DNA from: a virus | Lineage: Duplodnaviria; Caudoviricetes | IMG/VR virus record: IMGVR_UViG_3300032303_001834 | Location: 1 to 34,431 of that record | Reading direction: 5' to 3' (one strand) | DNA length: 34,431 nucleotides | In this document: in pieces, positions 1 to 32,900 of the stretch | Layout of the letters: every line of letters begins with the position of its first letter | How positions within the stretch are numbered: the first letter of the stretch is position 1 | Notes under the pieces: model-generated | The model's input: only the letters and a program-made list of their open reading frames with translations | Told to the model about the DNA's origin: nothing | The model's database searches: none | Program-made: the position numbers and the translations under genes

Positions 1-367
1 GTGCTGTTCAGCACCACCAATGATTAAGGGAACCTGCTATGCCCATCATCCATTGTTGTCTATTCCCCGTATAGTCAGCTATTTGGGCTACTATACGCTA
101 CCGGTTGCTCTGTAAAGTTTGCTGGGACTGTAGTGAAGATTATCTCTTGCAAGAGGTCTTCCGCAACGCATGTTCTATAACCCAAAGACAAAGTAGGCTA
201 TAGACTCATTCAGGGTTCGCACACATAACGAGAGCCCTGTCGGTATTCCAAGACTAAAATACTAACCAATGGTTAATATAATAATCCTGCATACTCCAGA
301 TCTGTCGGCAACGAGCCTTACCTCGGCTGACTCAAGGAGGATCGAGGTACCTCGATCAAACGTACTG
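1..367 (-). ncRNA. Putative large structured non-coding RNA of unknown family, 3' part truncated by the window edge
   Basis: No ORF; about 46% GC by hand count (164/360) in an AT-rich genome; near-contiguous hairpins at 340-357, 314-328, 249-289, 211-239, 174-204, 135-161, 68-97, 18-55 and 1-14; stems 174-204 and 249-289 contain G-U pairs on the minus strand that would be A-C mismatches on the plus strand. Confidence 0.6.
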
Positions 368-937
368 TTAAACTATAGGTATTGTGATTAAATTATCAGA
401 AGATTGTTTTTGCGTTGACTTGGTGTCTGGTGTACTGGAATAAGCTTTAAGAAGGTCTTTGTTGTTTTTAAAAAAGTGATTGAATTCTATAATGAGCCAA
501 TCACCATAATTGCCTGAAGAATAATATGTAAAATTATCTGTAACCCAAGTAAGACCGCATTGCACGGCCACGTATCTTCCCTTTCGGGTAAACTTCATGA
601 ATAGGATGTTTAAATCCCCAGCATCAGCAACCGACATGAGTTGATCTAGCCACGTATTTAGTTGCTTGCTTTCACCTGAAAGTACTAAGTGAAAAGGAAA
701 ATCAGCATAGTTCTTTGCTTCAGCATTAAACTTACTCCAAGAGTCAGGGGGAATAATATCTCCCTTAAACCCTTTGATTTGATTTTCACTTAGATTTTGC
801 TTTCTATGTGAATTTGAGCCACCAATAAAAGCACCTGAGTTGGGCACTCTTACAAAATGATCATCATAGAGGTCGCTGAGATATTTTGCAACATCTCTTT
901 CCCATGATGAACCTTTTTGCTTTTGTGGACTAGACAT
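368..937 (-). CDS. Holliday junction resolvase, Hjc-like PD-(D/E)xK family
   Basis: N-terminal KGSSWERDVAKYL, RVPNSGA, GDII and EAKNY motifs typical of Hjc-like phage resolvases; adjacent to gp46/gp47. Confidence 0.75.
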   Translation of the reverse strand: MSSPQKQKGSSWERDVAKYLSDLYDDHFVRVPNSGAFIGGSNSHRKQNLSENQIKGFKGDIIPPDSWSKFNAEAKNYADFPFHLVLSGESKQLNTWLDQLMSVADAGDLNILFMKFTRKGRYVAVQCGLTWVTDNFTYYSSGNYGDWLIIEFNHFFKNNKDLLKAYSSTPDTKSTQKQSSDNLITIPIV

Positions 938-942
938 ACTAA

Positions 943-957
943 TACTTAGTGTTTATC
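943..957 (-). promoter_or_regulatory. Putative phage late promoter(s) (GATAAACA / CTAAGTA) ahead of the resolvase, probably a leaderless transcript
   Basis: Minus strand reads gataaacaCTAAGTAttagtATG; resembles the T4 late box TATAAATA; 5 nt from the ATG and no Shine-Dalgarno. Confidence 0.4.
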
Positions 958-976
958 AGGTGGTATGAAAATTTTA

Positions 977-2734
977 TCATTTTTCAATACTTACGGAACT
1001 CTCATACGTGGTAAATCCACTCTCTTTGACAACTTTGAGAACATTTGGAACTCTGTTGATTAATTCTTCTTTATGACTAACTAACCAAATAGATTTTTGC
1101 CTACGGCGTGACATCTCTTTAAGTATACTTAGAGAATTTTCAACACCTATACTATCAGTACCGTTGTCTAATAGTTCATCAATAAATAATACATTGATTG
1201 GTGAATATAATGATTCCCAAACGTCACGAAAAGCCCAAGACAATGCTAATATAACTCTGTTCATCTCTCCCCTTGACAAATTATAGAAATCCATTTCTCT
1301 ACCCAACTCAGTAATTTCAACCTGAAGATCATTTTGAAATACTACCTGATGGGGTAGACCAATCTTATCCAAATAATGAGTAAGTCTACTATTCAAATAT
1401 GACAAATTTTGATCAATAATCTTTTTGCGAACAAATGAATCTTTACTACTTAATAGGTCAAGTAGAAATTTCTGATGTTCTAGTGTTTTAGTCAACCTAT
1501 TGATATTATCAAAATCAATTTCTTGTAGAGCTTGACTCTCCATTTCACTAATTTGTTCATCATATGGGTCAACTTCCGCTGCTTTGTTTTCTATAGAAAC
1601 TAGAGTATTGGCAATCTGACTAGAATGCTTAACAGCTTCCGCTTCGGTTTTATAATGAGTAGTAGGTTTGGCACTGACAAACACTGGATTATCTTCAAGC
1701 TCCTTTATAGTGGCTTCGAACTCATCAATATGTTTTCTACTCTCTGTCAATGATTCAATCTTTTTATTTAAGACTTCTGAATGAGATTCATCATGGAACT
1801 CCTGACCGCAAGCATAACATTTATGATCTTTGAGAGTTTTAACTTCGGTATCTAGTTTAGCCCAAGTTTTCTTTTCTTTAGCTAGATCGGTCTTTGCTCT
1901 ACTAAGATTAGCATCGTGTTCAGTTTGTAAACGAACCTGATCATTATAAATTACTAAATCTTTATGTGCCTGAAGTTCTTTGTCTATATCAATGGCACTT
2001 AGTTTGGTATACTCAATAGCGAGTTTTTCCAAGTCTTCATCGTGTTTAGTTTGCCAAAGTTTCTGCCTACGCTTTAAGCTTTCAATTTGTTCTTTAACAC
2101 GCTTATTGGCTTCTTCAATGGCTTTGACTTTGAATTCTTCGGATTGAATAGATTCTTTGCTTTCTTTAATTAGATTTTTAATTACCTCAGCTTTTTCGGA
2201 AAGGATAGTAATTCCCAAAAGCTGTTCAATAATGTTTCTTTGCTCATTGGTTTTAAGAGCAAGAAATGGTTCACTGTAAGTATTCAGCGCAACGATATGT
2301 CTAAACATATCAGCCGACATATTGATGATTCGTTCAATAGCATGTTGAGTTTCTTTATTTTCCCCTTGTGCATCATCGGTTGACTTTTGCAAATCATCGT
2401 TTACATAAAATTTCAGAATATTGGGTTTGCGACCACGTTCAATCTTGTATTCAATGCCATTGACACTGAATTCAAGAGTGACCATCATGCCCTTACCATT
2501 AGTACGATTAACTAAATTATCCTTGCGAATGTTATTAATTGGAACGCCAAAGAGTGCATATGACAGTGCTTGAATCAATGAGGTTTTGCCCGTACCATTT
2601 CTAGCACCGTCACCGCCTAAATCTAGGTTTTCACCTAGGATAAGGGTCAACTCTCTGCGATCAAAGTTTACCGCTTGCGTTACTTGTCCAATTGATAAAA
2701 AATTCCTAAGAGCAATATTTTTTAATAAAATCAT
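977..2734 (-). CDS. gp46: Recombination endonuclease ATPase subunit, T4 gp46 / SbcC / Rad50-like (585 aa; start moved from 2788 to the ATG at 2734)
   Basis: Walker A NGTGKTS, coiled coil with CYAC zinc hook, signature LSRGE, Walker B LFIDE, H-loop VSH; MILLKNIALRNFLSIG is the typical family N-terminus. Confidence 0.93.
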   Translation of the reverse strand: MILLKNIALRNFLSIGQVTQAVNFDRRELTLILGENLDLGGDGARNGTGKTSLIQALSYALFGVPINNIRKDNLVNRTNGKGMMVTLEFSVNGIEYKIERGRKPNILKFYVNDDLQKSTDDAQGENKETQHAIERIINMSADMFRHIVALNTYSEPFLALKTNEQRNIIEQLLGITILSEKAEVIKNLIKESKESIQSEEFKVKAIEEANKRVKEQIESLKRRQKLWQTKHDEDLEKLAIEYTKLSAIDIDKELQAHKDLVIYNDQVRLQTEHDANLSRAKTDLAKEKKTWAKLDTEVKTLKDHKCYACGQEFHDESHSEVLNKKIESLTESRKHIDEFEATIKELEDNPVFVSAKPTTHYKTEAEAVKHSSQIANTLVSIENKAAEVDPYDEQISEMESQALQEIDFDNINRLTKTLEHQKFLLDLLSSKDSFVRKKIIDQNLSYLNSRLTHYLDKIGLPHQVVFQNDLQVEITELGREMDFYNLSRGEMNRVILALSWAFRDVWESLYSPINVLFIDELLDNGTDSIGVENSLSILKEMSRRRQKSIWLVSHKEELINRVPNVLKVVKESGFTTYESSVSIEK

Positions 2735-2751: not shown

Positions 2752-3687
2752 TTATATAATTTGTAAACCATGTTTGCTGAACACCCAAAATTCAAATAGA
2801 TAGCCCAACGCTAAACATGCTTCTTTTTTGCGGAGGTTATTATTTAGGTCTTTACTATATGTATAAGTAGATTTTACCTCAATCAGTTTATTTTCATTAA
2901 CTAACATAATGTCTGTGAAATATCTATGTTTGGTGTGATCAGAATTCTCATACCAAATAATTGGCAACAATGAGCGTTTAGTAACAATGTTATCTTCTGT
3001 TGTCATTGTCAATAAAATATCTAGGGCCCTAGGTTCGTATCCCTGCACTTTAATAACTGTACCTGAGGGTAAAGTATACAATTTGAATCTAGTGCGTTGT
3101 TGTTTGAGATGAATTTCAGGAACCTGTGACACATAATCAACCCCATATCTTTCTCTAATAGTTTTTTTTGCCTTAGCGAATCGGTCAGGTGCATTTTCTT
3201 TGTTTTTTCTAGAAACTTCTTTTGCCACACTCTCTAATTTAAGTATGTTATCAACTCCGTACCGACTAAGATTAGTATTTTTAGTTTTTTCAATTATGGC
3301 CGAAACATCGTTTGATAGCCAAGTAGTGCGCCGTTGATCAGCCAATTCTGTACGCTCAGCAGACTCTAATTTATAATTAGCATTAAATGTTAGTTGTTTG
3401 GCCTGCTTTATGTTAGGTAGTTTACTGACATTGGTAACTCCGTAGGTTTTTTCTAATGTATCTTCTGCTTTACTTCTGTTGTTAAAATTAGAATCTCCGT
3501 ATTTTTCTAATTTAGTTTTTCTCCCCTTTTCAATATTTTTAAAATTTGCATCACCGTATTTTTCAATACAGGTGCTGCTCTTGCGCTGCCTAATTTCAGG
3601 ACATCCTGACACATTTTTGCTACAGCATGTGATGCCATTTTTAAATGTAAATGATGCGGGGCGTTTACAGTAGTTACAAATTGTCAT
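2752..3687 (-). CDS. Free-standing homing-endonuclease-like protein (Cys-rich N-terminus, repeated T..(K/R)YG helical motifs, C-terminal PD-(D/E)xK nuclease)
   Basis: CNYC...CCS...C; repeats TCIEKYG, TKLEKYG, TLEKTYG, TNLSRYG, TIRERYG; VQGYEP and HRYFTDI...KLIEVKS catalytic-like motif; sits between gp47 and gp46; GAGGA SD upstream. Confidence 0.7.
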   Translation of the reverse strand: MTICNYCKRPASFTFKNGITCCSKNVSGCPEIRQRKSSTCIEKYGDANFKNIEKGRKTKLEKYGDSNFNNRSKAEDTLEKTYGVTNVSKLPNIKQAKQLTFNANYKLESAERTELADQRRTTWLSNDVSAIIEKTKNTNLSRYGVDNILKLESVAKEVSRKNKENAPDRFAKAKKTIRERYGVDYVSQVPEIHLKQQRTRFKLYTLPSGTVIKVQGYEPRALDILLTMTTEDNIVTKRSLLPIIWYENSDHTKHRYFTDIMLVNENKLIEVKSTYTYSKDLNNNLRKKEACLALGYLFEFWVFSKHGLQII

Positions 3688-17910: not shown

Positions 17911-20900
17911 ATGGCCACAAAAATAAGAACTCTAGATTTTCTCCCAGAGATATTTCAAACTCCTACTAACGCTCAATTCTTAGCAGCAACACTAGACCAA
18001 CTAGTTGCACAACCTTCTGTTGAAAGAATTCAGGGATATATTGGTACTAGAGTTGGATATGGAATTAATGCTAAAGATTATTATGTAACTGAACCAACAA
18101 AAGTTAGAACAGATTACCAACTTGATCCTGGTGTTGTGTTTAGAAAAACCAATCAAGATGTTGCACAAGATTTCATAAGCTATCCTGGAATATTAGATGC
18201 TCTTAAATTAGAAGGTGGGATAACAAATAATAATAATCGACTTTTTAATAGCGAATTTTATTCTTGGGATTCATTCACTAATTTAGACACAAATGTTAAC
18301 TTTCATCAGTATTACTGGTTACCTGAGGGTCTTCCCCCAGTAGTAGTAACATCTGCAACCGCTTATTCATCTGAGCAATATTACGTTATTGATGGCTCAA
18401 ACTCTTATCAAATCACCACAGAGCCTACAGGGACTTCATTAGGAAATCCAACTTTAACTCTATTACGCGGGGGCACTTACACATTTACCGTAAACCAAAA
18501 AACTCAGTTTTGGATTCAGGGCCAACCAGGAACTACTGGATATAGCATTACTCAACCAAATGTACAAACTAGAGATGTATTGGGTGTTGTTAATAATGGT
18601 GCTACTACAGGTGTTGTGACTTTTACTGTACCTGCTAAAAACGCACAAGATGAATATAATTTACCAGGTAATAACACAGTAGGTGTAGTAAGCACATTGC
18701 CTTTTTCTCAAATAGATGGTAGTTATTTAAACACATTGAATGACATTGATGGAGTAACTTCACTCAACGGATTAACTGTTATGTTTTACAATACAGGTAA
18801 TCCAAATGAAATGGCGTATGGTCAGTTAGTAAGCGCACAATTTTTCACAATCAATTATATTGGATCAACTTCTAATCCACAATTACAACTTACCCCTGCT
18901 ACCAGTATACCAACTAATCAAAAGATTACCGCACAATATGGTACTAATTATTCAGGTAGACAGTTTTTTAGAAATACAGCAACCATTGTTACATTAATAC
19001 CTTACTTAAGTGCTGAGTTAGATACTCTTTATTATCAAGATGGTACTTCAAGTGATAAAGTAGGGATGATTAGACTTATTGACAGTAATACGACTGATAC
19101 AATTGATGTTGTGACTGAAATATTAGGTAAGACAACTTATACATCTCCCAACGGTGTCGCGTTTACAAATGGATTGAAAGTTCAATTTCAAGGTAATATA
19201 ACCCCTGAAGCATATACAGTTGAAGATTTTTATGTTGAGGGTGTGGGTACGGCAATAGAACTTATTCCTGTATCAAGTCTTATAGTTCCTGAATCTTTTT
19301 CTACAAGCGTGTACTTACCCTATGACTCAACACCATGGGATATTGGTGGTTGGTCCGGTAAACCTTTTATACCAACGGATCCTGATTATATCACTATAGC
19401 TAGAAATGCACTAAGCAAAAATGCTTGGTCTAGAAGCAATAGATGGTTTCATATTGATGTTATTAGAGCAACTGCTGAATACAACAATGATCCTACCATA
19501 TTATTTTATGCATCACAGGATTATAAAGCCAAAAGACCCATAATTGAATTTTATCCAAACCTAAGATTATTTGATTCGGGTACTGAAGGCAAAGAGCCAT
19601 TAAATTTCATTGATTTTCGTACCACCGATCCTCTATTACTAGTATCAGGGCAACAAAATTATTATCCTGATGTTCAGGTATATACCGATTATGCCGCTAG
19701 AATTGATACAACTAATTATACAAGTTCACGTACCGCTACCGCAACTAATGGTCTCACTGATGAAATTACATGCGGCAGTACTTCAGGATTTAGAGTTAAC
19801 GATTTAGTAAGATTTACTATTAGCTCAGGAGCAGTGTTTGGTAATATTGTTGCAGGTGAATATTACTATATTTCAGAAGTAGTTAGCAGTACTAAATTTA
19901 CAGTTTCAGAAATCAAAGGTGGAAATCTAGTAGACCTTTCTACTGGCACTGGAACAATGCAATTTTACTGGACACCACAAAGTACAGTGATAACCATTGC
20001 AGCTAGTGATGTAACAGGTACTTTCAAAGTAGGTCAATACATAACTGATTCTACTAATTTACTTCCACCTGAAACACAAATTTCTTCGGTATCAGGAACA
20101 ACTACTATAACTCTAGAGGTAATATGGGATACTGTATCATACAGTTTCTTTGCAGGTACAAGTGTAGCTTCTTTAATATCAGTTCCTCAGCCAGTTAATA
20201 ATTATGCGTTGTTCAATGGATCTAGAGTGGTATTTGCTGCTGCTACAGATCCCAATGTTCGTGACAAGATTTATATCGCTAGATATTCTGTAATATCAGG
20301 TTCAACTCCCGTGCTTACATTGAGCGAAGCACCAAATGGCGAGATACTAGTCGGTGATCAATCAGTTATACTTAGTGGTTACAACTATGCAGGAACAAGC
20401 TTTTGGTATGATGGTTTGGAATGGCTTCAAGCACAACAAAAAAATACAGTAAATCAGCCACCTTTGTTTGACGTATTTGATGAAAATGGTATTAGCTTTG
20501 GTGACAAAGCAGTATATGTTGGTAGCTCATTTATAGGTAGTAAATTATTTGCATATGGTATTGGTACAGGAACAAAAGATTCAGTTTTGGGATTCCCTAT
20601 CAGATATAGTACTGTAGCTAACATTGGTGATATTAGCTTTGATGTATCAATTAATACCGATACCTTTGATTATGTAAGTAATTCTCAACCAATAAATCAG
20701 AAGGTTAATACTGGTTATGTTTATAACTATCAAACTAGAAATCTTTATAACAGAGAATTAGGTTGGCAAACAGCGGTATCACCTAGTATTCAATATCAAG
20801 TATTTGAATTTGATTATTATGTCACAAATCCTCAAGTATTGTTTACGTGTGACGTTGCAGTAAATTCTACTACTTCTACCAATTGGCCTGTTATTAAAGT

Positions 20901-23900
20901 ATTGATAAACAATATTATATTGCCTAGCACTGATTACGAATACATTGTAGCTAGTAATTCCACAATTGTAAACATATTTTCTACTATTCCAACTGACACC
21001 GTTGTACAAATTTTAATCTTCAGTGATCAGGTAAGTGCTACCGCATATTACAGTATTCCTATTAATTTAAGTAACAACCCACTTAATACCAATTTAGAAA
21101 TAGCCAATGTAGGTGATATTAAAAATCAATATCAAACTATATACTATAATAATCCAAATACCTCAGGTGAAGTCTTTGGGCCAAACAATTATAGAGACTT
21201 GGGCAATTTAGTTCCATGGGGAGATAGAATAATACAAAATAGCGCCTCACTAGCATTAGTGGGTGCGTTCTTAAGAAAACCAAATCAAAATGTATTCAAT
21301 GCATTGATGTTCAATAGCAGAGAATATATTAAATTTAAGACATTATTAGTAGACACTGTTAATAATACAGACTATGCTCAAAGATTTAATCCATCAACTA
21401 TATTAGATGATGCACTAACTAAGATTAATCAAGTTAAGATTCAATCTCAGCCATTCTTTTGGAGTGACATGATCCCATCAAAGTCACCCTATATTATTAA
21501 TAGTTATACATATACTACGCCATCTATCGCTCCTACTTACCCATTAAGTAAAGTTTATAACTTCTCTACTGCTAATTATTCAGGTGTATTAGTTTATCTT
21601 TCTACCACTATATCTAACGTACCTATAACCAAACAATTGGTTACTAATGTTGATTATGTTATTAGCACTTCTACACCTTCACTAACAATTATATCTTCTT
21701 TACAAAACGGGGATGTAATTACAATTAAAGAATACAATCAAACATATGGTAGTTATATTCCAAATACTCCTACTAAATTGGGTCTATATCCTGCATTTAT
21801 TCCCGAAGTAGTATTAGATTCAGATTATGCCCAGCCTACATATTTTATTAGAGGTCATGATGGTTCATATAATAAGTTATATGGAAAATATGATCCTGTA
21901 CTAGGAGTATTAGTAGACTTTAGAGATCAGGCTCTATTGGAATTTGAACTAAGAGTTTACAATAACTTGAAATTAAGTACCAGTGTTCCTATATCGCAAT
22001 ACGACATTATACCTGGATTCTTTAGAGAAACTGCATTTACTAATAGTGAAATTTTAGAAATCTATAGTAAAATGTTTTTAAATTGGGTAGGACAAAATAG
22101 AATTGATTATAAGAAGCAGTTATTCAACAAAAACGATCAATTTACATTTAACTATTATCAAAGTGGCAATAAGATAGATCAAGAACCTATCTATCAGGGT
22201 TATTGGCGTGGGGTATACCAGTGGTATTATGATACTACTACCCCTAACTTAACTCCGTGGGAAATGTTAGGTTTTCAAGAACAACCAAGTTGGTGGGCCT
22301 CTAGATATGGTCCAGCACCGTATACCAGTAACAACTTGATTCTTTGGAATGATTTAGCAGAGGGTATTAATTGGAACAACGGTAATCCAATAGTATTACC
22401 ACAATTCGTAAGACCTGAATTATTACAAGTGATTCCAGTTAATAGTGCAGGTAAATTATTATCACCGTTTGATGCAATTGTTGGTAACTACACTGCTTCC
22501 ACATTCCAACATGATTGGAAAGTTGGTGACGAAGGCCCTGCTGAATTAAGTTATCGCAGAAGCAGTTCTTGGCCATTTGATTTAATGAGAATATATGCCC
22601 TAACTGAGCCTGCTAAATTCTTTAATCTATGTGCTGATCTAGACAATTACAAATTCAACACTGAATTTAATCAGTACTTGGTTAATAATCGCAGTCACTT
22701 GGTCCCTGCAGATATTCAGGTCTATGGTACAGGTACACCCAAAACAAGTTACATGAATTGGGTAGTTGATTATGAAAAACAATTGGGTGTAGATGCCACA
22801 CAAAACATAATTGACTTGTTAAACAATATTGATGTTAGATTAGTTTATAGAGTGGCTGGATTTACAGATAAGAATCTAGTTAATTTTTATGTAGAAAAAG
22901 CAACACCAAATAGTACCAATGCTAGCCTATTAATTCCTGACGCAAGTTATCAAGTTCTATTATATGATAACCAACCTTTTGATAGAATAATTTATAGTTC
23001 TGTTATTGTTCAGATAACAAGTGAAGGATACTTGGTATTTGGTAATTCTCAAACACAAGCCTATTTTACTACTCTTAAACCAAAATTCACAGGAATAAAT
23101 GAAGTAGTTACTGTAGAAACCCTAACTGTTAAACTTGCCACTGATTATTCCAATGAAGAAGTAATCGTGCCCTATGGCACATTATTCTATACTGTACAAG
23201 AAGTTGCTCAATTCCTAACTAGCTACGGCGCATATTTACAGGCTCATGGCATGGTGTTTGATGAAATTCTATCTGGTATAGAAGTCACTTGGAATCAAAT
23301 GGTATCTGAGTTTTTATACTGGGTTCAATTGGGTTGGGAAAATGGTAGCTTAGAAACCATTAATCCAGCTGCTGGATACTTAAAAATCAACAGAGATGGA
23401 TATCTAGTACAACCTCTTACTATACGCCAAGAAAACTTTGTTTTAAATCAAAACTTATATCCTATTCAATCTACTGATTTAAATGTTCTTAGAGATGGTA
23501 CGCTATTCCTTGCTCGTCCAGTAAACAATGGGGATTCACTATCATATGGTCAATTTAATATAGCTAGTCTAGAAGATGGCGTTGTATTCAATAACGTTAC
23601 ATTATTTGATGACGTTATCTATGATTTGATAACTGGATCTAGACAGCTTAGAATTTATGTCAGAGGCAGTAAAACCGCTGCTTGGGACGGTACTCTTACT
23701 GCATCAGGATTTATTCTTAACCAAGATAATATACTACAGTGGAACAAAGATGTAACTTATACTAAAGGGAGTATTGTACTTTATAAGAATAAGTATTGGG
23801 TAGCATTAAGAATAGTGCAACCAAGTGCTACCTTTAATGAACAGAATTGGAGAAAAACTGAATACGATCAAATTCAAAAAGGACTATTGCCAAATTCCAG

Positions 23901-26900
23901 CACTAGATCCTATGAAAGCACTCTTTATTATGATAGTACTAAAGCTAACATAGAAGAAGATGCTGATTTATTGAGTTTCTCTTTGATCGGATATCGTCCA
24001 AGAGATTATCTAACAACCGTAGATTTAACTGAAATCACTCAAATTAATGTTTATAAAAACTTAATTAAAAACAAAGGTACTCTAAATGCGGCTAGTGCAT
24101 TCAAAGGCGCCAATCTACCACAGGGCGGAATAGATTATGACATTTATGAAAATTGGGCTATCAAAGCAGGCGAGTTTGGTGGAGTATTAAATACCAACTT
24201 TGTAGAATTTAAGATTAGTGAAAGCTTAATGACTGGTGATCCAAGTATTGTTGCTCTTACCAATGGTGCACCAACTCCAGGTGCCGAACAAGAAATACCA
24301 TTGTATTCTCTATTCAATTATGGCCGAGCAATTAATAGTCCTGACATTCTAGAAACCACTGCAATTAATCAGCCGTCTACTTTGTATCCTGATGCAGGTT
24401 ATGTTAATTATAATGATGTTAGAATGTCAAGTTATTTTTATTCTAACCTACCAACTGCCGTAAATCAAAATGGTATATTAATTCCTTTATCTGAATTTTA
24501 TGTAAGAGAGTATGTTTGGATAGCGAATTATCTAGGTACTTGGCAAGTATATACTCCTGCATCTATTGGGCCAATAACTCAGGCTTTAAATAACCTAAAT
24601 GGTACCGTTACAATTACATTTAGCAATCAGCATAATTTGTCACAATACAATATCTTTGCTATCATTAATCTCAATCCTGCTATTAACGGGTACTACATTG
24701 CAACATATATCGTTGATCCATTTAGAGTAATAATTAATTTAAATCTAGACCCTAATATTAGAAATGCTACAGGGCTAGGTGTAGGATTACGTTTCCAAAC
24801 TCAACGGGTAGCTACTCCTGCTGATATTAATAACTTAAACTTACTGAATTCAGAGTTCATTAAAAACACTGTATGGGTTGATACATATTCCACCGGTGAT
24901 TGGGCAGTTTTAAGAAAGAGTATCAATTATCAATATGAACAAGAATTCAATAAATTAAATAGCTCAACTTATGGTAGTGCAGTCGCAACTGACACACAGT
25001 TAGGTTATTTAGTCGGCGATAGTGGAGTAGGAGAAGTATATAGATATACTTACAATGAAGTTTTACAAACTTATCAACTAGTGCAGACTATTACTGGCAA
25101 TAGGTCATTTGGTACTACTATTAGTCACGCAGGTGATTTATATGTAATATCAGAGCCAACTACTAATTATAGCTTTTCGGTAAATCCATCTAGATGGGAT
25201 TGGGATATATCAGCAGAAGGTGGAACACATAGCTTTACAGTAACACCAAGTAGTTGGACTTGGAATATATCGTCCTTAAGTGGACCAATTACCACACCTA
25301 CTTTAACATCTACTTTAACATCTACTTTAACATCTACTTTAACATCTACTTTAACATCTACAACAAATTCTACGCCTGCAGTTTACCTATACATACTAGA
25401 AAACAATGTATTATCAGATGACTTGATATTATATCAAAATCCAATTACCGCGCCGAATAATACAAAAAGTTGGGGAGCTGCTACTGCGATATCAGGTGAT
25501 AAGAATTGGCTTTATATTTCTGATTATGACAATAATTCTGTATATGTTTACAGAAGAAACAATGTTTCAACACCAGCCGGATTTTTTATAGTAGGGCAAA
25601 CTTATACTATTACTGACTTGGGCACTACAGATTTTACCCTAGTAGGTGCTACTAATAACATTGTAGGGTTATCTTTTATAGCAACTGGAGTTGGATCAGG
25701 TACTGGTGCAACAACAAATACAACATATAGATACATAACAGTTATTGACGGTAACGAATTATCGTTGACTACTTCAGTAGGAGATAACTTTGGTTATTCA
25801 ATCTCTACCGATTATTATGGTCAAACAGTAACAATTGGTGCACCTGGTCAAACTATAAACTCAATTACCGATTCAGGTGCAGCTTATCTTTTTAGCAGGA
25901 CTGTGCAAAATGTAGAAGTTCAAGTAAACACTACCCCGGGTTTTCCTCAAGTATTTAGATTGGGATGGTCCCCTGTGACTGCTAGAACTGCTGTTTTTCA
26001 AACATCTAGTTCTAGCAATACCATTACATGCGCTGCTAGCACTAGGAGATTTCATGTTAATGATCCTGTTATATTCTACGGTACAGTTTACCCTAATAGT
26101 AATATATCATTTAACCAAATTTACTATATTCATAGCATAGTAAATGACACTACATTTAGGATTAAAGTTAGCAGAGAACAACTTAATCCATATCAATTGA
26201 CTAATTCAAATGGTAATGGAATGATTGTTAGTGTGCAAACTGTTCCGATTTACGTTTCCTTAAATGGGACTATAGTTGCTGATAATCAATATGGTATGGT
26301 AGGAAGCTTATTATATTATGTAGGTACATTAACAGCAGGTGATATTATCAACGTTAGTGGAAATAAGTTTACTTACTTCCAACAATTAACCAATCCAAAT
26401 AATTATACAATTGGTTCACAATTTGGATTAGCCTGTGCTAATAATTTACAATCAACTGAAATTTTAGTAAGTGCTCCGTTTCAGATTAATAATCAAGTAG
26501 AAGAAGGTGGTATATTTAGATATACTAATGGCGGTACTAGTTATGGTCAAATATTTGGTACATCAACTTGTAATGTTACGGCGACTACTCCTATTTTATT
26601 AAATGGTTATTTGGTTCTAATACCTGAAGGTAACGCTACAGCGGTAGCCGCAGCAATTAATTCTAATAAAGTTACTAATATTACTGCTAGTACTAGTGGT
26701 AGTAATAATGAATACTTGGTTATTTCGTTAATAAATCAAGACTTGGCAATACCCAATGCAAGTCTTAGTATTGCTGTCTTTAATATTAATACCCTAAGTG
26801 AATTAGGAATAACTGTTTATACACAAACACAAACTATTAGTAGTCCTCATTTAGGTGAGCGTAATCAGTTTGGTACTACTATTAAATTTAATGAACAGAA

Positions 26901-29900
26901 TTCGTTCGTAGCCAGCGCTCCAGTTGGTTCACGCTATAGCAGTACTACTTTTGATTTTACAGATGATGAAAATTATACTAATGACACTGTATTTGATAAT
27001 AATGCAACTCAGTGGATAGATGTATTTGTTAATGCTGGTGCGGTGTATATGTTTGACTACTTGTCAGTGTATAATGAAAACATTAATAATACTGGTGACT
27101 ATGTCCTTGCACAGGATGCTAATGCTAGAAATATTAATTATGGTAAGCAGCCATATTATGGTACTGCACTTGATTTTAATAACTATTCAGTAATAGTTGG
27201 TGCACCACTATTCAGACCCGATTATGTAAATGGACAGGTTATTACTTTCTTAAATTCTAGTGGAGAAAAAGATTGGTCTCTTTATAGAAGCTCCTCACCT
27301 GTAGTTGATATAAATCGTGTGCAAAATGCTCAATTGTTTAGCGCACTTACCAATGAAACATTAATCAACTTAGATTATATAGATCCTCTCCAAGGTAAAT
27401 TACTTGGTGCAGTAAGTGAAAACATAGATTATGTTTCCAATGTTGATCCGGCACATTATAATAATCAAAATAATTTGAAATGGGGAGTTACCAATATTGG
27501 TCAATTATGGTTCAACACTACTAATGTTAGATTTATAAATTATCATCAAAATGATTTAGTTTATAACAGCCAATATTGGGGTACAATATTTCCTGGTAGT
27601 GATGTTGCAGTATACTCTTGGATTTCAAGTAGTGACTTGCCTATAAATTATCAGGGACCAGGCACACCATATGATGTAAATTTATATTGCACTCAATTTG
27701 ATTTAAATGCCAATAATCTTTTAACACCAGTATATTTCTATTGGGTTAGAAATACAAATATTATCTTCTCCCAAGTTGGAAATACTCTAGCAGATTCAAT
27801 TATTGAAACATATATCAGATCTCCTAAGAACTCAGGCATCGGTTATTTTGCACCTCTGTTACCAAACACATTTGCATTGTATAACTCTGGTGAGTATATC
27901 AACGTAAATGATTCGGTATTCCATATTGGATATTCCACTGGTACAAATGATGATGTTGGGCATACATCATATGACCTGATTAGAGCTAATTATACTGATG
28001 ACTTTTTATCAGGATTGCCGCATTACGGTGCTAATGTCGAGCCTGAATACTTGTACAGAAGATTCTTAGCTAGTATGTCCGGTGTAGATGATTCAGGTCA
28101 AGTCGTACCTGATCCATTCCTACCGATAGCAGTTCGTTCAGGTGTTCAAGTGAGACCTAGACAAAGCTTCTTCTTATTCAGATTATTAGCTGTAAAAAAT
28201 TATTTGCAGTATGCTAATGAAATTCTAGCACAGTTCCCGATTATAGAACTGAGACCGCAGGCAACATTCTTGCATAAATCAGGTCCTTTTTACAATACAG
28301 CAGATTATTGGGAATATGTAAATTGGTGGGCTACTGGATATGACAATAATACTAAAGCATCAGTTCAAGTACCTTTGTATTCTGATTTATCCACCCTTTC
28401 TGTAGCATTTGGTACAATCGCTGAAGTAACTACAAATGGTAATGGTAATTCTGAAACTTACATTTATACTGTAGATGGAGTTTGGGTTAGAATTGGCTTG
28501 ACCAATGGTACAATTGCATTTAAGTCATCACTATGGGATTATGCAGGAGCTAACACTGGATTTGGTGGTAACTATTTTGATACAACTCCATATGATCAGT
28601 ATCCTTCAACAGAAACTTATTATATTCTTAGGGCATTAAACGAACAGATTTATATTGATGATTTTGCAATCTACCGAAACAAGAGTTTGATTCTTACATT
28701 TGAATATATTGTTGCAGAAACGGCCGAAACACAAAATTATCTACCGTGGCTTAATAAAACTTCATTAGTTGACGTAACTCATACCCTCAGAGAGTTGAAG
28801 CCATATGAAGTGTTTAGCTCAGATAACCAAGACTTTCTATATGGTTACTTAAACGAAGTTAAGCCTTATCATGTGGTGTTTAAAGAATTTTTGTTCAAGT
28901 ATACTAAAACAGAACCATACTTAATGAATGTCACTGACTTTGATTTACCTGCTCAATATGTTGCTGGTGACGCTCAATTTATTTCGCCTGAGTTGGTTTA
29001 TAGTAATCCAAGTGGCGATAGTCAATTCTTACCTGAGAATCCGATTTGGAATCAACAGGAATACACTCAGTGGTATCAGAATTATGGGCTGTCTTTTACA
29101 GGTCAAAATGATTTTAATATCGCTAGACTAGAATCTTATATTTCAATTAATACAACTGAAATTGCGGTATCTAATATCAGTGGGTTTCCTATCGCCGGTA
29201 CTATCAAAATAGGTACTGAATTAATTTCATATGAAACTGTAAATCTTGAGACATATACTTTAAGTGGACTGTCAAGGGGATTAAATGGTACTACAATTAG
29301 TAATCATTTACCAGGTGAATTAGTTTACATTGACTTGCCATCGGTACTAGTAGTGTACGGTGCTCATAGTTACACAGAACCTCCTAAAGTTACAGCATAT
29401 ATTGATACCTCAATCTATCCAAAGCCCCGTATACCTGCTGTATTTGCAGCGGTGATGAACGTAGATTCGGTGTTAGAAATTCAAGTAATTAATCCTGGCT
29501 CAGGGTATGCTGTACTACCAACAATCGTAGTTGATCCCGCCGAAACATACACTTTTGGTAGTGGTGCAGTTAACATTATTTTAAACACTATCACATTAGC
29601 GGCTCCAAACTTAGTTACAGGTGATCAAGTACAATACGAAGTTGGCGTAGCTACAACTGCAATTGGACCTTTAGTAGACGGGGAATGGTATTATGTGAAT
29701 GTATTATCCAGTACACCAGTAACTACTATTGCACTGTATACAAGCTATGATGATGCCATCAATGACAACTTTAGAATTAATTTTACTAGTACAGGTACTG
29801 GTTCTAGTCAATCTCTGAATTTAGGTGCTAGAGCATTTGCAATTACAAATTCAACACCTGTAAGAGAAAATATCATTACTATGCGTTTTGACAGAACCTC

Positions 29901-32900
29901 TTATTTACCTCAAGTAGTTGATTGGGTGCCTGAGCAATTTTATGGGGCTAGTTATGCTGGAAACTACAATAAAATTTCTAGCTCATCAATTCAGTTACAA
30001 AGTACGAGTCCTCCCATTGGATCAGTGTTGGCCAGTGGACAAGGATTGGGATTGGAAATTGAAGAAGTTGAAAATCAGGTTATATATTCTTGGTCTGGGT
30101 TCCCTCGTAGAGTAACAAACACCTATTCAGGATCTAATACTATTAGACTTAATCCTTATGACAGTGGAGTTGGTAAACCCACAGCATCAGGTTCTACAAT
30201 TGGTTTTTATGTAGGGATGCCTATTAGAATCGACGGAGCATCAATTGGTGGCATCATAACTGATGTAACATATTATGTCCATAGCATCGTAAGTGACTTA
30301 CTGTTTACTATTTCTCGAACCGCAACAGGATCGGTATATCCATTGACCACTGCAACAGCTACCCCTAACACTGTTAAATGTTATACTGCTCAAGTTATTA
30401 ACCAAGCTATATTAACTGTTAATTATCCAGGTATAGTTGAAGTAACTTCAATAGCAGATTCAAATATAATAACTGTACCTCTTAATCCTACTGGAACAGG
30501 CGGGACCTATGGGTTTTATGTCAATATGCCTGTATTCTTCACAGGCAATGTGTTTGGTAACATAATTGCCAATGAAGTATATTACATCCATACAATATGT
30601 AACTCACAGACATTTACAATCTCTACACAAACAGATCCAGTTACATATACTTTGGCCAAGACCTCTGCAACAGGCAACGTAGTAACATTAACAAATCAAG
30701 TTATGGATTTAAGCACAAACAATCCTATAATCTTCACGAACTTTGTGTTTACTAGTGGAAGTTTCATAATTGGACAAACTTATACTATAGTTAGTCTTGG
30801 TACTACTAATTTCACTTTAATTGGTGCACCTTTCAATGGAATAGGAGCTACCTTTACAGCCACCGGTGTTGGTACTGGTACTGGCACAGCATCATCTGGT
30901 GTATTTGGTAATCTTATATCTGGTCAAATATATTATGTTGCTAGTGTAGCTAGTGCAAATAGTTTTAGTGTAAAAGCACAAATAAATTCATCGGTCATGA
31001 CCTTAATTAATAGTCAAGGTACAGGTATGGTTTCCGATCAAACTGATACAGTTGATTTGGTAGCCAGTACTGGTACAATGATCATTAATTGTAATTTACC
31101 AATAAGTCCAGGACAAATTACTGGTCAGCAGTTTTCAATGTATACTACGTCACGGCAATATCCAAACATAAGTGGGCCAGTTGGCAATTTAATTACTAGA
31201 ACATTACCTGCTACCCTTGCTGGTTCAAACAGAATACCAATGACATATACCAGTGGTGGAGCAACCAATATCTATGTAAATATGCCATTTAAACTTGCAA
31301 AACCAATTGGGGGTTTAAGTGCAGGACCTACAGTATATTATGTAAAAGAGGTTGGTACAACTTCTATACCTGTAATTTCCACTAGTGCTCCTAGCACCGT
31401 CGGTGTGGTAACAGGTAGTATATCCGCTTATACATTGACCGTAACCGCAAGAACCTCAGGTCTGATAGTAAACGGGGCTACCATTACAGGAACAGGAATT
31501 GCAGCAGGTACTACCATTATATCACAGCTATCAGGGTTGCCTAACAGCACAGGTACTTACTTGGTAAGTACCTCTCAAACGGTAGCGTCAACAGCCATTA
31601 CATTATCTATTAGTTATCTAACTATTCCAAGTACATATTCAACTAATACATTGTATGCAGGTATGCCTGTTGTTTTTGATGCATTGAGTATAGGTGGTGT
31701 AGATTTGAATACCGAGTATTTTGTGCGGTCAATTATAAGTGCAACTCAATTTTCTATATCACTTACACTAGGTGGTGATGCTGTTATTATGTCTACTGGA
31801 ACCGGCAATTATATGCGCTGTACCGGTCAAGATTATATAACAGTAAGTGCTACCCAAGGCGGACCGGTTATTCCGCTGCTTGGCTCAATAGCAGCAAATG
31901 ATTCATTTACCTTCACTCAGTATCCTATACTAGCCCCTGTGTTTGATGTGAGTTGGATATTAGGTGGCTATAATGTTGTCATAACTAACCCTGGATTGGG
32001 TTATGCAGTATCCAATACAATATCAGTACCCGGCACCTTAATTGGCGGAACGGTAAATAATAACTTAACGATCACTATAAATAAACTACAAGAATATGCG
32101 GTGAATCAGAGTTATGGGGCTGTAGCTGATGTTATTACCTCGGGGTTAATACCTGATATACCTACTAAATATTTCTTAAAAGCGGTTGCTCCAAATCAAT
32201 TGGCAGTATATAGCAACTCTCAGTTAACTGTTCCTGTTAGTGGTATAAACTTTCCATATTATGGTACAATACAAACAACTGTAACAGGAACATTCGCTTC
32301 AAGCAATGTAGTAGTTGTAAATAGTACTACAGGTTTTAACTTAAACGACCCGGTAGTGTTTACGGGTAATGTAGCTGGAGGATTAGTATTAGGTAAAGTA
32401 TATTATATACTTAGCGTCACTCCCAATCTAACAGTGAGCTTAAAACCCGGTGATAGTTCAACTATAGTATCGTTATCAACAGCGACATTTCTTAATTTTA
32501 CAATGGCTAAGTTGGGTGATTATGCATTCTTGCCTGAACCATATCCTTTCAATCAAAGTATAGTTAAATTTAATAATAAAGTTTATTCCTGTGTAGTGAG
32601 TAATTATGATGCTGAATTTGTTTTAGGTAAGTGGGCATTATTAAATTCTGATGACCGTAGATTAAATGCACTAGACAGAATCATAGGTTATTATGCACCT
32701 ACTGTTAATATGCTCGGGGCAATTACTAAATTGGGTCAAACTTTATCATACGATATAGTTACTTATGATAGTTATCCATACAATGATGTAACCTCATTAA
32801 ACATAGATTTGTCTCAATTACTAACTGGAACAACATATCCAAATAGTACATATTTAGGTAATAATTTCAATCCTGATTTAGCGTTTGAATTAGATACTGA

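Follow-up and report, generated by a model that had tools for sequence, protein, structure and literature searches.

What occupies the stretch behind the resolvase gene at the left end of this phage contig, and what might it do? The window, by which we mean the whole 34,431-nt stretch of DNA analysed, is the complete contig of a jumbo myophage whose resolvase has its closest cultured relatives in PA5oct-like phages (47%). According to the original prediction, positions 1-367, with no ORF and about 46% GC, encode on their minus strand a large structured RNA not described before. We found no ORF longer than 40 aa within 1-367, and the GC content was 45.8%, against 35.6% across the window. The minus strand folded better than its shuffles (z -2.69, 0 of 100 shuffles as good; plus strand z -1.23, 12 of 100), and all nine predicted stems were in place. 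A contig 99.2% identical to the window (L001) prolongs the locus past the contig's left end; there the locus is a 537-nt gap bounded by convergent baseplate-hub genes. Window 1-363 almost certainly belongs to a real, conserved structured RNA on the minus strand, about 25 nt more of which lie beyond the contig end (about 385 nt in total).

Conservation and covariation of the RNA

Homologues were collected from IMG/VR with a pattern for the 3' hairpin, which gave at least 120 loci (about 290 estimated), and all 120 listed loci were matched by a profile built on the first 11 copies. There were 90 full-length copies, and removal of 32 redundant ones left 58 distinct sequences of freshwater jumbo phages, 42-94% identical, which form subfamily A. 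Covariation in the 58-copy alignment was strong when measured with our own approximation of R-scape against a tree-shuffled null. Nineteen column pairs rose above the null maximum, 17 of them canonical pairs and 2 neighbours of those. The 74-pair structure drawn from the same alignment is 93.5% paired (33-44% in the slid control), with double changes in 51 of the 74 helix pairs. We counted 88 G-U against 10 A-C cells, and GNRA in 24 of 59 variable-arm loops, the reverse complement of GNRA being present in 1. Because of this G-U excess and the GNRA loops, the strand is fixed as minus and the molecule pointed to is RNA.

Rfam 15 gave no gathering-score match in the window, no relevant match at E≤10 in 1-420 and none at E≤1 in sets of 9 and 10 loci; the predicted novelty stands, and no outcome named beforehand as contradicting the prediction was encountered. 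ARAGORN detected 0 tRNA or tmRNA genes in the window. A group I intron was considered and rejected: the element is intergenic, its S-like word CAGUCC takes part in a downstream pairing, pseudoknot 2 (see below), and there is no Rfam match. Searches of openly available full texts, Weinberg 2010 (PMC2864571) and PMC5778457 among them, gave no description of the RNA family, and the accessible text of the CBB genome paper (PMC5259590) does not mention the RNA. Six of its motif words were absent from the searched supplements of Fremin et al. 2023 (PMC10690425), the alignments and one table being outside this scope; pieces of the RNA may be among the unnamed candidates of that study.

A knotted core and a symmetric 3' domain

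All elements of the fold lie on the minus strand. The RNA opens with hairpin P1 (340-357), which keeps at least 5 bp in 58/58 copies and belongs to a 5' module common to subfamily B (see below). Next comes P2 (294-339; 339-336 with 297-294), a helix absent from the original prediction and 100% paired, which encloses the AGCC/GGCU hairpin P2a (314-328), where 43/58 copies form at least 5 bp. The predicted arm at 249-289 (P3) was supported, with double changes in 5/6 base pairs, but it varies in length, and in relatives it is often GNRA-capped. The long-range helix P4 (99-245; 245-241 with 103-99) had also been missed; it is 99% paired, shows double changes in 3/5 pairs and closes the core junction. 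A base triple of P4 with 116 is possible; the covariation among columns 178, 338 and 355 is weak and does not reach significance.

P4-P7 meet in a multi-way junction that forms the core. Hairpin P5 (211-239) has a conserved internal loop and is 99-100% paired, and at 239/211 and 237/213 its covariation exceeds the null maximum; like P9, the hairpin has strong compensatory-change support across the 58 homologues. The same holds for P6, whose true extent is 170-209 and not 174-204 as predicted (99.4% paired, double changes in 8/9 pairs). The P6 loop provides the long-range pseudoknot 1 (56-191; 191-186 with 61-56), in which 100% of cells are paired, 5/6 pairs have double changes, and 191/56 and 189/58 exceed the null maximum. 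The predicted long-range pairing of GUUGC with GCAAC is real in another register: 108-104 pairs with 167-163 (290/290 cells) and not with 312-308 (164/231). This helix, P7 (104-167), encloses P8 (135-161, at least 5 bp in 58/58 copies) and the conserved words ACUACA and UUUACAG, and it lies in the core common to the subfamilies. Pseudoknot 2 (64-127; 127-125 with 64-66) is 95.8% paired with double changes in 3/3 pairs, and with E about 0.25 for 127/64 it is less significant than pseudoknot 1. Neither pseudoknot was in the original prediction, and the two land side by side at 67-56. Hairpin P9 (68-97) is 95.6% paired, with double changes in 9/11 pairs.

The 3' domain (1-51) contains one direct repeat (about 51-33), the first of a pair, along with the terminal hairpin. 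The hairpin predicted at 1-14 is a real helix but is truncated by the contig end: it has 9 bp and starts at position 19, so that 19-11 pairs with 4 to beyond the contig end. It formed part of the search pattern, and its invariance is by selection. The predicted stem at 18-55, which overlaps it, was kept in part, with its outer pairs at 80% and the inner GGG/CCC at 55%, and the twofold occurrence of CCGACAG is found in 1/58 copies and is due to chance. Past the contig end follow the second direct repeat, an A/T tract and GNA hairpins (L001 3945-4065). The repeat 5-mers are identical in 30 of the 36 copies (of 58) that could be parsed, with a shuffled mean of 18 and a maximum of 26. The two repeats flanking the terminal hairpin covary by identity and not by complementarity, likewise in subfamily B, which suggests two-fold symmetry of the 3' domain.

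Genomic setting in the window

The genes before the RNA are, in order, a late sigma factor, SbcD, a homing endonuclease, SbcC and a RusA-like Holliday junction resolvase (368-937, minus strand; phrog_244, E 1e-21), which is the upstream neighbour and lies outside the RNA. The homing-endonuclease-like gene (2752-3687) lies between SbcD and SbcC and overlaps the starts or ends of both. At the other end of the window, a single open frame of over 5,500 codons fills 17911-34431; it encodes a virion structural protein and runs off the contig. Beyond the left end, a gp26-like hub gene and a short gp51-like ORF (L001:4108-5162, minus strand) converge on the RNA. All subfamily A copies are intergenic.

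Upstream of the RNA, within the resolvase tail and 30-90 nt ahead of it, is the conserved word GACAC-NNN-GTC (417-427, minus strand). By eye it occurs in most subfamily A upstream regions and at several B loci after the stop codon of another gene; it is a possible promoter or processing element. A weak sigma-70-like site (372-399, minus strand; 9/12 matches) is positioned just before the RNA. Such sites are at chance level (4 found, 3.0 expected).

Related RNAs in freshwater and cultured phages

A pattern made from more distant loci gave at least 120 further loci (about 380 estimated, some of them by chance). From 123 rows we dropped 24 as duplicate or too short, 1 for failing the motif filter, 17 as redundant and 7 as outliers. 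The remaining 74 distinct copies, subfamily B, are a second freshwater set that has the 5' module and the core in common with A. Many follow the gene of a 142-aa protein that has homing-endonuclease matches; its best PHROG is labelled NAD synthetase, and we read it ourselves as GIY-YIG-like. Some follow the resolvase or another insert, and a resolvase match was found at just 11/80 B loci. An AGGC word stands ahead of many B copies, and short tandem repeats containing AGGC lie just upstream of the RNA at L219:1170-1300 and L260:1790-1700 (minus strand).

In cultured Rak2-like phages, the same locus has a gap that holds subfamily C, for which 23 candidates less one near-duplicate and one non-member gave 21 copies. 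By blastn, C is present in most of 82 records, where it usually occupies 4-5 places per record. All four genomes searched (PBECO4, Munch, Kaldavass and XaC1) carry 4-5 full cassettes that share one orientation and are spaced by 34-110 kb. In PA5oct, three paralogous copies lie on the plus strand, at 13, 76 and 246 kb, with 82.5% identity over 126 nt and an identical 32-nt hairpin block, and the third is at the hub/resolvase locus. These five genomes with spaced copies are related and do not count as independent. Four freshwater genomes or contigs of 259-525 kb have one copy each, and neither blastn nor profiles found extra copies in them. Twelve descriptor matches that we inspected in freshwater genomes were coding sequence, and six other mini-hairpin sites there had no cassette by eye.

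A descriptor of the shared core, composed after all three subfamilies had been viewed, matches 56/58 A, 69/74 B and 19/21 C copies, with 0, 0 and 1 antisense matches and none in shuffled sequence. In a search of 89 kb with a B-core covariance model, the seven best matches were all to cores of the element, five of these belonging to a set of 12 C copies (E 0.013 to 2.1, a rough estimate), and A and PA5oct were missed. The A sequence profile matches the 5' module in 7/74 B copies at E<0.01, and at this threshold sequence profiles gave no link of C to A or B. The B-C and A-B links are thus supported separately, and subfamily B and the Rak2-like phages have the knotted core in common with A at the same locus. 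The PA5oct copy was detected by neither profile, covariance model nor core descriptor, and its link to the window RNA is more weakly supported, by position and by motifs read by eye. What is new here is the proposed link between subfamilies A and C, and to the PA5oct transcript ncRNA004 described below.

Searches further afield returned little. Blastn of the window element and two B elements against 50,697 phage records gave chance matches or none, and the subfamily A pattern had 0 matches in 185,579 GTDB genomes. At the equivalent locus of Sinorhizobium phage Phosso, the RNA was not found by profile, model or descriptor; this locus has a 1-kb gene-free gap (L165:2986-4001) that adjoins an RNase HI gene and in which GNA hairpins can be seen by eye on each strand. 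The corresponding position in Atu_ph07 and SCTP-2 has no gap.

The original prediction tied the RNA to the resolvase. The tie holds in position only: some related copies stand behind a different gene or at another place in the genome, and others are inverted and have a promoter of their own. In freshwater genome G009 the RNA is inverted, antisense to the operon, and has a near-perfect sigma-70 promoter. A resolvase-specific 3' UTR was therefore rejected, given the other upstream genes at B loci and this inverted copy. A broader reading is that the RNA is a 3'-end element of the sigma-SbcD-SbcC-resolvase operon, that is, a terminator, an RNase barrier or a feedback site at which the resolvase dimer could bind the two-fold symmetric 3' domain. 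It would fit the subfamily A loci, where the RNA begins a few bases past the resolvase stop and faces convergent tail genes (resolvase upstream in 58/58 copies, hub downstream in 56/58), and a single RNA contig that joins the resolvase and the 5' part of the RNA. Since the upstream gene is often not the resolvase, the G009 copy is antisense to the operon, cultured phages have dispersed copies with their own promoters and no terminator-like site was found in window 1-1100, we consider this reading unlikely.

Transcription

In 6/7 lake RNA runs, which are shallow and were chosen together with this stretch, contigs cover part of the element at depth 2-7, like the resolvase; these contigs carry no strand or level. 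Two of them begin at the 5' end of the element (L001 3588 and 3592). No RNA contig covers L001 3956-4135, but run X14 (kind not on record) does, which is a weak hint in such shallow runs.

The PA5oct copy at 246 kb corresponds in position to the ncRNA004 reported by Lood et al. 2020 (PMC7318152). In the accessible text of that paper, ncRNA004 is a transcribed region of 619 nt, given without structure, family or function. It makes up 0.08/0.03/0.02% of phage reads from early to late, is thus highest early, and is about 15- to 250-fold rarer than ncRNA001 and 002 of the same phage (PMC7318152). Its reported end lies just past the terminal hairpin, ahead of the A/T tract and the hairpins. Its core words, terminal hairpin and downstream module are similar to those of the window RNA's family.

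A discrete transcript could mean that the RNA acts in trans as a protein scaffold, host-factor decoy or ribozyme. GOLLD/ROOL-type RNAs contain pseudoknots, GOLLD and ROOL are phage-associated, and their function is open; several large bacterial and phage RNAs are still without one. GOLLD, ROOL, OLE and raiA are likewise several hundred bases long and heavily structured (accessible text of PMC12286853). The window RNA differs from them in having no Rfam match, no tRNA genes in the window and a module of DNA-type hairpins behind it. If the RNA acted in trans, as GOLLD, ROOL and raiA may, those hairpins would be a tail or a transcription boundary, and extra copies would raise dosage. Such a role would suit the compact core, in which two supported pseudoknots and invariant unpaired words exceed the apparent needs of a primer, as well as the own promoters in G009 and cultured phages, the discrete ncRNA in PA5oct and the RNA contigs that begin at the 5' end. 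Against it, ncRNA004 is scarce beside ncRNA001 and 002, and the DNA-type hairpins accompany nearly every copy, the chromosomal islands described below included, yet lie outside the reported transcript. An island would also presumably benefit little from an RNA that its helper phage already makes. We regard a trans-acting role as possible but rather doubtful.

A hairpin module behind the RNA

In relatives, the cassette has the order promoter, RNA, A/T-rich tract, and GNA-loop and tandem-GA hairpins, all on the strand of the RNA. GNA-loop and tandem-GA hairpins are specially stable in DNA. Within 200 nt downstream, the sense strand has them in 55/58 A, 66/74 B and 20/21 C copies (141/153), the antisense strand in 2, 3 and 0, and the RNA itself in 0, 1 and 1. 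In upstream control windows of subfamily B, GNA hairpins were present in 19/72. The first 45 nt after the RNA are 68-75% A+T and the RNA is 41-46% GC; since the genomes are AT-rich overall, the contrast is mainly with the RNA. A clear sigma-70 consensus lies upstream of the C, PA5oct and G009 copies, as against a site at chance level in the window. With the hairpin module as blastn query, phages and plasmids gave nothing below E 2, and one weak match, in XaC1, sits behind a C-type copy.

The same mini-hairpin pattern has one match in ColE1, at L362:1331, with 0.084 expected per shuffled plasmid; the test was not blind, since the likeness had been noticed before the pattern was written. The stretch around it folds no better than shuffles. 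We take the match to mark the primosome site, which lies behind RNA II and on its strand.

A possible replication origin

We favour the reading that the element is the pre-primer RNA of a phage replication origin, like T4 oriF or ColE1 RNA II, and give it about an even chance. The anatomy of promoter and A+T tract seen in relatives matches that of T4 oriF and oriG. RNA polymerase would transcribe the RNA early. In cultured phages it would start at the RNA's own sigma-70 promoter; in the window phage, transcription would probably come by read-through from the resolvase operon or from a weak promoter. The RNA would fold during synthesis, with its 3' end staying hybridised in the A/T tract as an R-loop, and this end, either as it is or once RNase H has cut it, would serve as primer for the leading strand. 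The displaced strand would fold into the DNA-type hairpins, leading to helicase and primase loading, and the two direct repeats around the terminal hairpin could bind a two-fold symmetric protein.

T4 has at least 5 origins per genome, made of a promoter, an A+T-rich unwinding element and an R-loop; oriF (uvsY) and oriG (34) have the promoter followed by the A+T-rich tract and drive plasmid replication during infection (accessible text of PMC3016281). T4 origins are about 100 bp long, with MotA middle promoters and no common motif, whereas here a covarying RNA of 350-600 nt and a hairpin module are conserved behind sigma-70 promoters, and the origin role is predicted. The elaborate fold would not be required for priming, because T4 origins need no shared motif (PMC3016281).

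ColE1 RNA II resembles the phage RNA as a folded transcript with a persistent hybrid (PMC4412123, in its accessible text), and the tandem-GA mini-hairpin at L362:1331 may be a further likeness. The phage element differs in being multi-copy on a phage chromosome and in the lack of an RNA sequence match: profiles A and B had no significant match to ColE1, Rfam had none, and the C cassette was absent from 72,556 plasmids. RNA II is about 550 nt in size. In lactococcal Ceduovirus (c2), a non-coding intergenic origin behind an early promoter supports plasmid replication; the c2 phages are small siphoviruses with one origin, which works without other phage proteins (accessible text of PMC7150918).

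Several observations count for an origin. The cassettes are multi-copy, co-oriented and widely spaced in cultured phages (3-5 copies), the DNA-type hairpins are on the sense strand of an RNA with GNRA loops and G-U pairs, and ncRNA004 is low, early and ends before the A/T tract and hairpins. The mini-hairpin match in ColE1, from a test that was not blind, and the cassette-bearing islands with no recognisable replication gene would point the same way. Against an origin are the single copy in the four freshwater genomes or contigs, the absence of a skew switch and the absence of RNase HI (PF00075, 0/5 freshwater genomes). In two complete genomes and two long contigs, base skew follows the gene strand and does not switch at the element; in G001 and G002 the main switch of gene orientation is 5-7 kb upstream of it. 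A strand-skew switch is true of some T4 origins only. The G009 copy also counts against an origin, since it runs against the majority strand with no GNA hairpin behind it, as do the GNA hairpins in the upstream control windows of subfamily B. The searched literature, in its accessible text, holds no account of replication start in PA5oct-like or Rak2-like jumbo phages. Of the two roles first proposed, a replication-associated RNA fits better as the predicted function than a GOLLD/ROOL-like one.

The module might instead mark a start of packaging or recombination, where transcription opens the DNA and terminase, resolvase or SbcCD cut or bind the hairpins, islands being packaged by the jumbo phage. 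Branched DNA hairpins adjoining the resolvase and SbcCD genes would suit this, and as a cis-acting reading it is equally consistent with the islands. However, the sigma-70 promoters and the early peak of ncRNA004 disagree with packaging, which is late, and fixed terminal repeats are reported in the accessible texts for PA5oct (PMC7318152) and CBB (PMC5259590). We consider such a start very improbable.

Cassettes in enterobacterial islands

The cassette was found in 2/5,426 E. coli genomes, and 9 strong matches were obtained among 121 loci screened. Seven islands with flanks (L431, L442, L465, L485, L498, L503 and L508) have promoter, RNA, tract and hairpins complete. An integrase or recombinase adjoins the cassette in 7/7, a small serine resolvase is present in 6/7 and a CI and Ner-like pair in 4/7. 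Among the proteins searched (69 against Pfam, 17 rescanned against PHROGs) there was no Rep, primase, capsid or terminase; several ORFs are unassigned and could hide a Rep, and the sole helicase adjoins HamA. In gene content, the islands have what marks phage satellites: an integrase, a regulatory switch and no virion genes.

If the cassette is an origin, the islands would carry it for replication by an infecting jumbo phage. A wider proposal, which we put forward only tentatively, is that a T4-like jumbo-phage clade replicates from a portable cassette whose ribozyme-sized, knotted RNA builds or matures its own R-loop primer, and that defence islands captured the cassette and became satellites needing no replication gene. 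An origin role would add a structured-RNA origin class to phage biology and suggest satellites of jumbo phages. With any other role, it would remain a new fold of a large RNA, for which 58 + 74 + 21 aligned variants can serve structure work. Linking the lake-phage RNA to a published transcript and to multi-copy cassettes in phages grown on E. coli and Pseudomonas makes two questions testable in laboratory strains: how such jumbo phages start replication, and what a large RNA of this kind does.

The islands appear to form a family of integrative defence elements of 6-10 kb with Kiwa, Hachiman, STAND NTPase, GmrSD, AbiGi and DUF488 as cargo. Several carry an LprI-like gene and an unassigned ORF of about 286 aa.

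Other features of the freshwater genomes

A two-piece (permuted) tmRNA was present in 4/4 genomes (G001 288480-288896, G002 202603-203008, G008 110821-111310 and G009 94952-95270) and is a possible hint to the host group. The Polynucleobacter-1 RNA (RF01718) was above cut-off in 0/5 genomes; a full-length sub-threshold match (L326, G007:165725-165864; 35.5 bits, cut-off 37) lies 110 kb from the element. A GC-rich stretch on the minus strand of G009, at about 127.0-127.6 kb, contains repeated words, a GNA hairpin and apparently no gene; by profiles it is unrelated to the RNA. Near-complete tRNA clusters occur twice in the 525-kb contig G001, at 115-127 kb and, on the other strand, at 417-427 kb, which may reflect a large duplication or a chimeric assembly.
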